From: an uncultured Gammaproteobacteria bacterium
Lineage (GTDB): Bacteria; Patescibacteriota; Patescibacteriia; PEXW01
Reading direction: 5' to 3'
DNA: 64,000 nucleotides
Assembly (NCBI GenBank): GCA_964486505.1
Contig: CAZAMC010000003.1
Span: 19,505-83,504 of the forward strand
Shown: positions 20,905 through 62,687 of the stretch, piece after piece
Numbering within the stretch: position 1 is the stretch's first letter
How the letters are laid out: the number at the start of each line of letters is the position of its first letter
Notes under the pieces: generated by a model
Seen by the model: the letters and a program-made list of their open reading frames with translations, nothing else
What the model was told of the DNA's origin: nothing
The model's database searches: none
Position numbers and translations under genes: made by a program

Positions 20905-20977
20905 TCGGGGTGCCGGGACTTGAACCCGGGGCCTCTTGCACCCCATGCAAGCGCGCTACCAACTGCGCCACACCCCG
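20905..20977 (-). tRNA. tRNA-Pro (anticodon GGG)
   Basis: Manual fold of the reverse complement CGGGGTGTGGCGCAGTTGGTAGCGCGCTTGCATGGGGTGCAAGAGGCCCCGGGTTCAAGTCCCGGCACCCCGA. Anticodon loop AT-GGG-GT; T-loop TTCAAGT; 7-bp acceptor. Confidence 0.8.
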
Positions 20978-21948: not shown

Positions 21949-22296
21949 CTATTCCAGAAACACCTGGAGCGCCTCGAGTAGCTCGTGTTTGACGGCATCG
22001 GGCGGTTGGGGGTCTTTCTCTGGATACTGTTGTTTGAGGGCATGCAGGCGAATTTTGATTGCCTCTACAGCCTGCTCCTGGGCAACCAGGGCTTCGGGTG
22101 GGAAGGCGGCTTGGTACTTAGGGCTCGACATGTACGTCTCAATAACAAACACCGTGCTCCCAAAACACGACAGCCAGTCGTTGGCAGTCCGCGAAAATTC
22201 ATCCTCAATTCTGCTCGGGGCCTCGCGAATGGCTTGCCGGAGCTGGGCTACCCGGTCCTCACTAAGTTCTGGAGTGGGACGCTCGCCTTCGGTCAT
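21949..22296 (-). CDS. Hypothetical protein (start moved to MTEGERPTPE..., 115 aa)
   Basis: TGCTATACT extended -10 lies 6 nt upstream of ATG 22296. The ORF-track extension to 22479 would overlap the riboswitch region. Confidence 0.4.
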   Translation of the reverse strand: MTEGERPTPELSEDRVAQLRQAIREAPSRIEDEFSRTANDWLSCFGSTVFVIETYMSSPKYQAAFPPEALVAQEQAVEAIKIRLHALKQQYPEKDPQPPDAVKHELLEALQVFLE

Positions 22297-22302
22297 GCAG
22301 CA

Positions 22303-22311
22303 AGTATAGCA
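22303..22311 (-). promoter_or_regulatory. Extended -10 TGCTATACT, 6 nt upstream of ATG 22296 (leaderless)
   Basis: Minus-strand instance. Confidence 0.45.
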
Positions 22312-22394
22312 CCCGCCAATTTCCCGAAAGGGAACGGTTCGGGATCGCCATTGGCAAGCATCGAGCTGGTCTGCTACACTGCTGCTACAATTCG

Positions 22395-22501
22395 CGTATC
22401 CAGAGTGCTGGGAAGGGAACTCGCCCGCTATCACCCAGCCGGCAACTCGTCCTGCAGCTGCAGGACTCCAGTGCTCCATCGAGCCCGCAAGGGAAGATAC
22501 G
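22395..22501 (+). promoter_or_regulatory. Candidate SAM-I (S-box) riboswitch aptamer in the metK leader
   Basis: P1 CGUAUC...GAUACG. AGAG, GAAGGGA, GCCCG and GGCAAC elements are in SAM-I order. The P3 base GGCA/UGCU is extended by a perfect 16-nt palindrome UCCUGCAGCUGCAGGA. There is a GUGCUCCAUCGAG J3/4-like segment and a P4 CCC-GCAA-GGG. TGCTACAAT -10 at 22383-22391 puts the TSS at P1. Confidence 0.45.
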
Positions 22502-22562
22502 AGGCGCTCATCGTACTACCTTCTGTGTCGCGGAAGGTCTTTCACCGTTAACGACCCTGCGT

Positions 22563-23588
22563 ATGCTCACTACCACCGAATCGGTTACCATTGGCCACCC
22601 GGACAAAATCTGCGACCAAATTTCTGACGCCATTGTCGATGCGTACCTGCTGCAGGATCCCCTTTCCCGCGTAGCCGTGAACAGCATGGGCTCGCACGGG
22701 ACGCTCTTCATCGGCGGGGAGGCGACCTCCAAAGGCGCGGTAGATCATGCCAAGCTGGCGCAAGAGCTGTACCAAGAAATTGGCTACACCGAGGAATTAA
22801 AGATGGTAGTCAACGTTGTGCCGCAGTCGCCGGACATCGCCCAAGGGGTGGACACCGGGGGCGCGGGTGACCAAGGTATTATGTACGGCTACGCAACCGA
22901 TGAAACACCCGAGATGCTCCCCCGCCAAGTTGTAGCCGCGCACGCCCTCACACGGGGGCTCACCGCCCTCCGGGCAAAGCCGGGCTTCGAATGGCTGCGG
23001 CCAGATGGGAAGTCCCAAGTGACCTACGAGGACGGCAGACTAAAAACCATTCTCGTCTCCTGCCAACATACAGAGAACATCGAGCAGCCCGAAATTCAAG
23101 CGCAACTCACCCAACACCTCTTCCAGCCCCTGTTTGGCGACTTGTCGAATGTCGAAGTACTCGTGAACCCCACGGGCCGCTTTGTGCAAGGCGGCTTCTA
23201 CGCCGATACGGGGCTCACCGGCCGCAAAATTATGGTAGACACCTACGGCGGTCTCATTCCGCACGGCGGCGGTGCCTTCAGCGGGAAAGACCCAACCAAA
23301 GTGGATCGCTCGGCGGCGTACTTCTGCCGCTACGTCGCTCGCCAACTGGTGAAGCGTGGCCTCTGCCACCATGCCACGGTGCGCGTTGCCTACGCCATTG
23401 GCCGAGCCGAACCAGTGATGGTCGATGTTGAAGGCGATGGTGATGACGGCCTCCATGAAGCGGTGCAAAAGGAATTCGACTTCCGCCCCAAGGCGATTAT
23501 TGAACGTCTTGACCTGCGAAAACCCATTTACCGCCAGACGGCCATGAACGGCCACTTTGGGAATCCAGACTTCCCCTGGGAAAAGTAG
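22563..23588 (+). CDS. metK: S-adenosylmethionine synthetase (compact 341-aa form)
   Basis: GHPDKICDQISDA, DQGIMYGYA, GGGAFSGKDPTKVDRS motifs. Confidence 0.9.
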   Translation: MLTTTESVTIGHPDKICDQISDAIVDAYLLQDPLSRVAVNSMGSHGTLFIGGEATSKGAVDHAKLAQELYQEIGYTEELKMVVNVVPQSPDIAQGVDTGGAGDQGIMYGYATDETPEMLPRQVVAAHALTRGLTALRAKPGFEWLRPDGKSQVTYEDGRLKTILVSCQHTENIEQPEIQAQLTQHLFQPLFGDLSNVEVLVNPTGRFVQGGFYADTGLTGRKIMVDTYGGLIPHGGGAFSGKDPTKVDRSAAYFCRYVARQLVKRGLCHHATVRVAYAIGRAEPVMVDVEGDGDDGLHEAVQKEFDFRPKAIIERLDLRKPIYRQTAMNGHFGNPDFPWEK

Positions 23589-23651
23589 TATATCGTTGAC
23601 AACGAGTAGGGTAGCGCCTAGAGTTTTGCTACAAACACAACGGAGGAAAAC

Positions 23652-23915
23652 ATGGCACGATTTCCTGGCTACCTCATCGAGAACCCCAATGGGAATAGTC
23701 ACCTCATCCCACTGGTGATCACAACCGAGCACCGTGGACTCTGCATCCGCATCGACGTTCCCAAAGAACACCCGAACTTTGCCAATGCCTCAGACCGACT
23801 CCAGCAGGTTATCCTGGCCTTGCAGGAGGCAGGCATCAAGCACGAGGTACTCCGCGTAAGTTCGAGCCACAACCGGCTGCCCGACTGCGTGTGCATCTCC
23901 TGCGAAAAGGCGTAG
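23652..23915 (+). CDS. Hypothetical small protein (87 aa) with C-terminal CxCxxC
   Basis: Own TTGACA-N17-TAGAGT promoter (23596-23624), GGAGGA SD, and a downstream terminator. Confidence 0.45.
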   Translation: MARFPGYLIENPNGNSHLIPLVITTEHRGLCIRIDVPKEHPNFANASDRLQQVILALQEAGIKHEVLRVSSSHNRLPDCVCISCEKA

Positions 23916-23928
23916 TGCAACTTCAATG

Positions 23929-23955
23929 AAAAAGCCCCGACCGGGGCTTTTTGCT
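23929..23955. terminator. Bidirectional rho-independent terminator aaaaaGCCCCGaccgGGGGCttttt
   Basis: GC stem flanked by an A-run and a T-run, between convergent genes (23652-23915 + and ndk -). Confidence 0.65.
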
Positions 23956-53376: not shown

Positions 53377-53412
53377 TGAAAAACATAAAAAAGCAAGGGC
53401 TTCAGTTTCACT
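53376..53412 (-). terminator. Rho-independent terminator AAGGGCTTCAG-N5-CTGAAGCCCTT + T6
   Basis: 11-bp stem and T-run on the minus strand after the 602-aa gene. Confidence 0.55.
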
Positions 53413-53441
53413 GAAGCCCTTGGGATACCAAAGTTGTTAAT

Positions 53442-61932: not shown

Positions 61933-62009
61933 TGGTGCGCCCGGCAGGATTTGAACCTACGACCTCAAGCTCCGCAAGCTTGCGCTCTATCCAACTGAGC
62001 TACGGGCGC
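61933..62009 (-). tRNA. tRNA-Arg (anticodon read as GCG), CCA encoded
   Basis: RC GCGCCCGTAGCTCAGTTGGATAGAGCGCAAGCTTGCGGAGCTTGAGGTCGTAGGTTCAAATCCTGCCGGGCGCACCA; cloverleaf folds. Terminator hairpin plus T6 at 61887-61912. Confidence 0.75.
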
Positions 62010-62593: not shown

Positions 62594-62687
62594 GGAGAGG
62601 TGGCCGAGTGGCTGAAGGCGGCAGGTTGCTAACCTGTTATACGGTGTTAAAGCCGTATCGAGAGTTCGAATCTCTCCCTCTCCGCCA
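62594..62687 (+). tRNA. tRNA-Ser (anticodon GCT), long variable arm, CCA encoded
   Basis: GGAGAGGTGGCCGAGTGG...CAGGTTGCTAACCTG...GAGAGTTCGAATCTCTCCCTCTCCGCCA. Confidence 0.8.

Follow-up and report, generated by a model that had tools for sequence, protein, structure and literature searches.

A SAM-I-type aptamer without a canonical kink-turn in the metK leader of a Patescibacteria bacterium

A SAM-I riboswitch in front of metK, the gene for S-adenosylmethionine (SAM) synthetase, is textbook biology. Members of this class (the S-box; Rfam family RF00162), among them the T. tengcongensis metF, B. subtilis yitJ and metK leaders, arrange helices P1 to P4 in a set order around a junction, carry AGAG in the segment joining P1 to P2 (J1/2), form the SAM pocket from a GGCAAC/GUGC bulge in P3 together with A-U/U-A pairs in P1, and join the P2 loop to J3/4 in a pseudoknot; after P1 they have a hairpin that overlaps an alternative pairing with the P1 3' strand. 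The metK leader in a 64-kb stretch of contig CAZAMC010000003.1 (G+C 57%; "the window" below means this whole stretch of DNA as analysed) has the same arrangement, the alternative pairing there being a candidate one, and in this respect the basic call made here is an ordinary one. The element shares common ancestry with canonical SAM-I, and we consider it likely that it is a functional SAM-sensing riboswitch that controls metK. The G·A pairs of the kink-turn (K-turn) in P2 are described as "highly conserved" in the SAM-I family (PMC3764141, which also lists its highly conserved residues). Unlike SAM-I, the window reads C·A at 1b·1n (G35·A20) and A·A at 2b·2n (A36·G19), inside an internal loop of 2 against 7 nt. 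It differs further in an extra bulged pair in P2a, a minimal P4 (3 bp and GCAA), a J4/1 that is one nucleotide shorter, a CUCG:CGAG pseudoknot in place of the usual NNGG:CCNN, a weak U-tail, a model score of 28 bits and a host among the Patescibacteria.

Other described systems resemble the window element at its unusual P2. The SAM-I/IV (RF01725) and SAM-IV (RF00634) riboswitches, which belong to Rfam clan CL00012, likewise do without a kink-turn in P2 and have a binding core like that of SAM-I; the SAM-I/IV construct 4L81, for example, has a plain GGGG-GAGA-CCCC P2 (PMC5393176). Those two classes are stabilised by a second pseudoknot between the P3 loop and the 3' tail, however, and the window P2 has a long asymmetric internal loop and is not a plain hairpin. 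A second pseudoknot in the window was considered and rejected, and so was a kissing interaction of the P3 loop with the hairpin downstream of P1, as the best candidate was 3 nt long (P=0.81 against shuffled sequences) and was inconsistent across the clade. In one relative (locus L085, 2355-2500; L numbers designate the loci compared here) the U6 loop of P3 is complementary to an A6 run 3' of P1 (CUUUUUU:AAAAAAG; P=0.005 against shuffled sequences), a match that is probably coincidental; L087 has no equivalent.

Engineered kinks from the Lilley laboratory (G2nA, G2nU/G3nU and a swap for a pk-turn) indicate that the SAM-I fold tolerates non-standard kinks as tertiary contacts hold the bend (PMC3651934, PMC3672288). 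The window shares the A·A at 2b·2n with G2nA, a change that the T. tengcongensis riboswitch tolerates with a dissociation constant (Kd) of 0.31 uM (PMC3651934). In contrast to the engineered molecules, it also has no G at 1b, and it is a natural variant conserved by selection rather than a designed one. The k-junctions of, for example, some thiamine pyrophosphate (TPP) riboswitches offer another parallel, since two relatives, L121 and L125, have a third helix at the P2 kink site that makes it a three-way junction. Described k-junctions retain the G·A pairs and carry the third helix on the non-bulged strand (PMC4316175). L121 and L125 lack these pairs and have the helix in the bulged (3') strand; in the window there is no third helix.

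The initial annotation had proposed a candidate SAM-I riboswitch before metK from an ordered series of short motifs, and had suggested that an RF00162 match with E below 1e-3 over about 22395-22501 of the plus strand would support it. A targeted scan of 321 nt (22300-22620) supports that proposal, with a match to 22393-22503 (+) that spans the full model (positions 1-108 of 108) and scores 28.2 bits (E=1.9e-4). SAM-I was kept as the best match in Rfam clan competition, and the same targeted scan, in which SAM-II (RF00521) was also to be excluded, gave no match to that family at E<=10. The score alone would not justify membership in RF00162. The extra bulged pair in P2a, the minimal P4, the shorter J4/1 and the loss of the K-turn together explain why it is low, and because the score lies below the family's gathering score and the K-turn is missing, we place the element in clan CL00012 as a variant in the SAM-I lineage that lacks the K-turn, and not as a standard member.

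Stronger evidence came from relatives. The metK loci of organisms whose MetK is 56-90% identical were collected and then scanned with Rfam, and full-length RF00162 matches were found directly upstream of metK in L088/L089 (68.1 bits) and L002 (56.2 bits), which exceed the gathering score of 44.4, as well as in L085/L086 (43.5 bits), L001 (40.2 bits), L087 (38.3 bits) and L081 (28.0 bits). This graded series at one syntenic position is the strongest evidence for regarding the window element as a diverged SAM-I homologue. The arrangement of aptamer before metK is repeated in ten relatives; Rfam misses the aptamers of L084 (on the same contig as L125) and L121, which are present, because of their large insertions. 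A covariance model (R1) built from only the window, L081 and L118, for which the SAM-I structure was specified by hand, finds a single site in the 64-kb window, 22393-22503, at 125.8 bits. It also recovers every member of the clade and, in Bacillota and Clostridia, 13 classical SAM-I leaders that precede metK. Two other searches were less productive: a search of genome contigs with MetK returned mostly distant phyla, the useful Parcubacteria being only L001 and L002, and a signature search of metagenomes (CTCGCCCG...CAAC...GTGCNNNNTCGAGCCC) was rejected as a source of homologues, as only L118 of its 31 loci was real, while the remaining 30 matched GC-rich coding DNA by chance. The aptamer of the window ends 59 nt before the metK start, which places it, as is characteristic of SAM-I, in the leader of a methionine/SAM gene.

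The structure of the aptamer (Table 1) is supported by comparison of these sequences. The motifs read in the initial annotation were all found at the positions it had given, namely the ordered blocks AGAG, GAAGGGA, GCCCG, GGCAAC, GTGCTCCATCGAG and CCC-GCAA-GGG, the P1 strands CGTATC (22395-22400) and GATACG (22496-22501), the hairpin followed by TCTTTC, and the metK ATG at 22563; it had also held that the proposal would fall if relatives failed to support P1 to P4, and they do support these helices. Because MAFFT did not align distal P3, P4 and the 3' end of the aptamers correctly, its alignment was replaced by covariance-model and hand alignments. In an alignment of 25 sequences, which was fitted to the model structure, a caveat that attaches to the figures for P1 to P4, paired cells make up 92.2% of the total, where sliding the partners gives 36-47%. 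Both sides have changed in 22 of the 34 pairs, and the covariation score of 0.304, compared with 0.121 for shuffled alignments, was reached by none of 500 shuffles. Among individual pairs, P1 pair 4 is U-A in 15 sequences and G-C in 10, the closing pair U22479-A22495 (helix 6) is kept in 23/25, and the C-G, A-U and C-G pairs at the base of P3 (alignment columns 138-141) are invariant in all 25. By hand alignment of the clade, P1, P2a, P2b, P3 and P4 are all intact in the window, and P2b of L121 is GAG/CUC where the window has GGG/CCC, a compensatory change. The pseudoknot between the P2 loop and J3/4 is an independent test because its columns were unpaired in the model structure: 92.9% of its cells pair against 24-60% when slid, and its middle pair is G-C in 12 sequences but flips to C-G in the 7 of the window's clade.

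All positions of the SAM pocket are present in the window: A6, U7, G11, C44, A45, U57, G58, A87 and U88 in T. tengcongensis numbering, of which A6 and U7 correspond to A22398 and U22399 in P1. The contacts themselves are reportedly those of the 2006 structure by Montange and Batey. Within P2, the internal loop that stands in place of the kink-turn consists of AA (22413-22414) opposite GCUAUCA (22427-22433), and the terminal loop is AACUCG (22418-22423). The distal part of P3 (22449-22466) had been annotated as a perfect 16-nt palindrome with two PstI sites. The palindrome and both sites are there, but it is perfect over 18 nt, with arms GTCCTGCAG (22449-22457) and CTGCAGGAC (22458-22466) that fold into a 7-bp stem with an AGCU loop, the 16-mer and the PstI sites being nested inside. 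Distal P3 varies among relatives, from 4-8 bp in close ones to a 55-nt arm in L125, with compensatory changes; the palindrome is thus simply the distal part of a length-variable P3, and the PstI sites are incidental.

Table 1. Features of the metK leader, with positions counted from the first letter of the window.
Feature	Position	Strand	Evidence or remarks
Likely promoter	22351..22380	+	-35 TTGGCA 22351-22356, 18-nt spacer, extended -10 TGcTACACT 22372-22380; putative function
yACAAy motif (TACAAT)	22386..22391	+	1-12 nt before P1 in all clade members
SAM-I-type aptamer, 111 nt, four-way junction	22393..22503	+	RF00162, R1, covariation, selection
P1 5' strand CGCGUAUC	22393..22400	+	pairs with GAUACGAG 22496-22503; 7/8 positions pair in the window
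P2	22405..22440	+	P2a 22405-22412/22434-22440; P2b GGG 22415-22417/CCC 22424-22426; all positions pair
Pseudoknot 5' strand CUCG	22420..22423	+	four Watson-Crick pairs with CGAG 22480-22483 in J3/4
P3	22441..22475	+	conserved SAM-binding base GGCAAC 22441-22446 opposite AGUGCU 22470-22475
P4, CCC-GCAA-GGG, GNRA loop	22484..22493	+	C-G/G-C covariation (helix 7); followed by J4/1 AA 22494-22495
SAM-pocket equivalents	22398, 22399, 22403, 22443, 22444, 22472, 22473, 22497, 22498	+	RF00162 and hand alignments
Candidate antiterminator	22486..22527	+	CGCAAGGG-A-AG-A-UACGA with UCGUA-CU-A-CCUU-C-UGUG; tip hairpin 22498-22515
Terminator-like hairpin ACCUUCUG-UGUCG-CGGAAGGU (22518-22538) and weak U-rich tail CUUUCACCGUU (22539-22549)	22518..22549	+	-10.5 to -11.0 kcal/mol
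metK, probable regulated gene	22563..23588	+	S-adenosylmethionine synthetase; Pfam domains and Patescibacteria MetK homologues

Compared with L081, L121, L128 and L129, the window shows no more than 39-48% identity at the four-fold degenerate sites of metK, which is near saturation, whereas in the same comparisons the 70-nt aptamer core is identical at 60-61 of 70 positions (86-87%; binomial p ~1e-12 to 1e-16). The 9-10 core differences from L081, L118, L128 and L129 all lie in junctions, loops and lower P1, and L121 adds one compensatory P2b pair. Because the core is far more conserved than the four-fold sites, these sequence comparisons indicate that the structure and pocket of the aptamer are under purifying selection and are not a relic. 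The leader is 100% identical in two further sequencing runs of the same organism (L126, L127), and an assembly error is therefore unlikely. Samples SRR14932662 and SRR14932695 contain the identical leader.

The element departs from its family at the site of the K-turn, and the caution in the initial annotation, that the motif was not obvious, was well placed. The two strands there read GAA on the 5' side and GCUAUCAC on the 3' side, the latter without a GA dinucleotide. The K-turn is likewise absent in L081, L118, L128 and L129, which share with the window a loop of R-A opposite G-N-N-A-U-N-A that retains A1n and A2b; the pair that closes it (22412:22434) is G-C in the window and L121 and A-U in L081, L118, L128 and L129. 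L085 and L087, with MetK 72-74% identical, keep the canonical K-turn. Two relatives have much larger loops at the kink site, one of 36 nt with a hairpin in L125 (= L084; aptamer 1266-1441) and one of 78 nt with a branched insertion (-41 kcal/mol) in L121, whose MetK is at least 90% identical to that of L081. We propose tentatively, as something that falls a little short of probable, that the K-turn has been replaced in nature by the 2/7-nt loop or, in close relatives, by a three-way junction with a helix of 36-78 nt on the bulged strand. If so, nature would have supplied a new type of kink module that serves long-range docking, and with it a counter-example to the mutational finding that SAM binding is abolished once the 1b·1n G·A pair is lost. 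From the literature SAM affinity is predicted to be reduced without a K-turn. The variant might be tuned to a different range of SAM concentration in ultrasmall symbionts.

The P2 insertions of L125 and L121 match at 13 of 15 nt in their 3' arms, which hints at a shared origin and conflicts with the relationships based on MetK. L121 (region 1103-1500) has a second insertion of ~170 nt (-62 kcal/mol), between the terminator-like hairpin and the metK ATG. The idea that its two GC-rich insertions are copies of one mobile element finds no support, as their local alignment scored 18 against 14.8±2.1 for shuffled sequences.

The likely promoter is the only sigma-70-like site in 22100-22800, where 0.2 would be expected from shuffled sequences, and an extended -10 of the form TGyTAnAnT is found at the same distance from P1 in L081, L085, L087, L125, L128, L129 and L001. 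Two tandem extended -10 elements had been annotated initially, TGCTACACT (22372-22380) and TGCTACAAT (22383-22391). Both sequences are present, but the TACAAT within the second more likely overlaps the transcription start, with +1 probably near A22387. We prefer this position, about 7 nt past the first -10, because it leaves P1 intact; a start after TACAAT would truncate P1.

A homologue of the hairpin that follows the aptamer is found in L081, L118, L121, L128 and L129, with A-U, G·U or G-C as its first pair. The candidate antiterminator would pair the P4 3' side, J4/1 and the P1 3' strand (22486-22502) with 22511-22527 in an interrupted helix of 15 bp. This fold emerges when the 3' half of the terminator is blocked, has a computed energy of -13.6 kcal/mol against -10.5 kcal/mol for the terminator, and has the topology expected of an antiterminator. 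In L085 and L087, which are richer in AT, the terminator hairpin stands at the same place and is followed by UUAUUUUUU, with a T-run of 6. Their antiterminators (-18.3 and -17.3 kcal/mol) compare with terminators of -9.7 and -12.4 kcal/mol, and that of L085 has z=-3.3; the platform in these two relatives is of classical S-box design, and it is clear only in those two.

We infer the following course of regulation for the window. Transcription would start near 22387. The RNA from 22393 to 22503 folds, as the comparisons above show, into a SAM-I four-way junction with the P2-loop:J3/4 pseudoknot and an intact SAM pocket between P1 and P3, the 2-nt/7-nt loop in P2 presumably still permitting the bend by which the terminal loop docks. 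When SAM is abundant, its binding would lock P1 and P4, the hairpin at 22518-22538 would form, and transcription would terminate before metK, leaving the gene off. At low SAM, the 5' half of the hairpin would instead be taken up in pairing with the P4 3' side, J4/1 and the P1 3' strand, and this antitermination would allow metK to be transcribed. Stabilisation of P1 by SAM followed by premature termination is the most likely mechanism.

Several results weigh against a SAM-sensing riboswitch that acts in this way, and they bear on different explanations. The targeted score of 28.2 bits is below the RF00162 gathering score, and Rfam scans of the whole 64-kb window gave only four tRNAs at the gathering threshold and no listed SAM match at E<=1, the match being absent from the permissive scan because filters drop it. 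Minimum free energy (MFE) folding of the leader yields no four-way junction and no unusual stability (z=-0.99), and such plain folding is uninformative for a pseudoknotted aptamer. Together with the 30 chance matches of the signature pattern in GC-rich coding DNA, the low score, the empty scans and the modest folding energy would suit a chance resemblance to SAM-I in a GC-rich, divergent intergenic region. That explanation is effectively refuted and has next to no probability, given homologous aptamers before metK that rise by degrees to 68 bits, a reciprocal R1 search that recovers classical SAM-I leaders, helices and a pseudoknot that covary, and a core conserved so far above neutral sites. 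A more serious alternative, though quite unlikely in our view, is that loss of the K-turn inactivated or re-purposed the element, so that the aptamer no longer senses SAM; it would then, for example, bind a protein, act constitutively as a leader or attenuator, or respond to another ligand or to much higher SAM concentrations. The C·A and A·A readings speak for this, as in the T. tengcongensis riboswitch the changes A1nC and A1nU, which disrupt 1b·1n, abolish SAM binding (PMC3651934), and a pk-turn swap keeps binding at a Kd of 300 uM, an affinity ~1000-fold lower (PMC3672288). It is also in keeping with the sub-threshold Rfam score, with a kink site that tolerates the insertions of L125 and L121, and with the loss of the whole element in L083 (MetK 84% identical), where metK has a tRNA 61 nt upstream on its own strand; the element is therefore dispensable in at least one lineage and polymorphic within the clade. 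Against it, the contact positions, the P3 bulge and the pseudoknot have all been kept under strong purifying selection while neutral sites approached saturation, which is difficult to account for if the ligand pocket has fallen out of use. The replacement loop, too, has kept its length and pattern, and the metK gene context is unchanged.

A functional aptamer might also control metK by a route other than intrinsic termination, such as translation initiation, mRNA stability or Rho-type termination, and we judge this unlikely. It could work through long-range pairing of J3/4-P4 with the start region, or through a role of the conserved hairpin other than as a terminator. In its favour, the U-tail CUUUCACC is weak by comparison with the canonical terminator of this genome at 23930-23955 and is essentially missing in L121, a consensus terminator scan does not call the window hairpin at 22518-22538, and the window antiterminator is no more stable than shuffled sequence (z=-0.19) and in that sense has no statistical support. 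A generic terminator scan of 12-32 kb found 27 candidates against 22.2±5.2 in shuffled sequence, which is no enrichment and cannot calibrate the terminators of this genome. The MFE fold of the window pairs GAGC/CCGC/GGG of J3/4-P4 with CCC/GCG/GCUC around the AUG, and translational SAM-I riboswitches are known, for example with the ribosome-binding site held in the P1 3' side (PMC2258182). On the other side, there is no Shine-Dalgarno sequence before metK to be sequestered, and Shine-Dalgarno-like motifs precede only 8 of 52 crude open reading frames (ORFs; a rough estimate from first in-frame starts), so that the organism appears to rely little on initiation of this kind; sequestration was rejected on these grounds, and the GGAAGG of the hairpin stands 25 nt away from the AUG. 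In L081, L128 and L129 the long-range pairing with the start is not conserved in position, the hairpin of L121 lies ~190 nt before the ATG and so cannot occlude the start codon there, and L085 and L087 have a clear terminator and antiterminator. A GCGUAU at the start codon that resembles the P1 5' strand is not conserved in relatives and was treated as coincidence. Premature termination controlled by SAM remains the preferred mechanism.

The novelty of the element is modest and lies in its host in the Candidate Phyla Radiation (CPR), its escape from routine annotation and the natural replacement of its kink-turn. Riboswitch regulation in Patescibacteria (CPR) is almost undescribed, and a full-text literature search found no paper mentioning both Patescibacteria and a SAM riboswitch. 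The series of SAM-I-type metK leaders implies that CPR bacteria with reduced genomes make their own SAM and control it homeostatically. The variant in the window is invisible to standard Rfam annotation and leads to miscalled MetK starts, both of which a clade-specific model would fix. A kink-turn deemed essential from mutational work has here given way, under purifying selection, to a different loop or an inserted helix, providing natural test cases for the exchange of architectural modules in RNA.

The metK ORF on the plus strand encodes 341 aa with all three S-AdoMet synthetase Pfam domains, N-terminal, central and C-terminal (E=1.6e-25 to 1.3e-55). Because its closest homologues all belong to Patescibacteria (CPR), namely Parcubacteria, Liptonbacteria, Wolfebacteria and Sungbacteria, the host is a Patescibacteria (Parcubacteria-like) bacterium and not a Firmicute, which corrects the Firmicutes-like lineage suggested initially. 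Gene calls for MetK in L084 (2501), L087 (532) and L129 (1201), giving proteins P0005, P0007 and P0123, start 12-64 codons early, inside the riboswitch or leader, because the RNA element is unrecognised; their products are 363, 405 and 353 aa long against 341 aa. A minus-strand ORF of 176 aa (21949-22479) overlaps the element in the window and is over-extended. Gene callers in L126 and L128 give a 115-aa minus-strand product ending at 22296, without a Pfam match, and the element therefore sits in a divergent intergenic region of 266 nt. The 115-aa protein is conserved divergently upstream of metK. The tRNA before metK in L083 (173-245) is a homologue of the window tRNA at 20905-20977.

Elsewhere in the window, Rfam gave a weak, sub-threshold match to the BjrC68 sRNA at 53387-53439 (-; 24.9 bits, E=0.035). 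Sub-threshold matches to Plastid-ycf2 and Plastid-psbI-rps4, at 61935-62009 (+) and 62629-62684 (-), lie on the strands opposite two tRNA genes and are almost certainly antisense-tRNA artefacts. Downstream of metK, an 87-aa ORF on the plus strand (23652-23915), without Pfam annotation on record, is inserted between metK and ndk. It is preceded by a near-consensus promoter (TTGACA, 17 nt, TAGAGT; 23596-23624) and a GGAGG Shine-Dalgarno sequence. The gap between metK and ndk holds no gene in L081 and L121, and in L083 an unrelated 97-aa gene on the other strand. Between the 87-aa ORF and the convergent ndk in the window lies a textbook bidirectional intrinsic terminator, AAAAAGCCCCGaccgGGGGCTTTTT (23930-23955), which was spotted by eye; the consensus scan missed it, probably because its A/T runs were absorbed into the stem.

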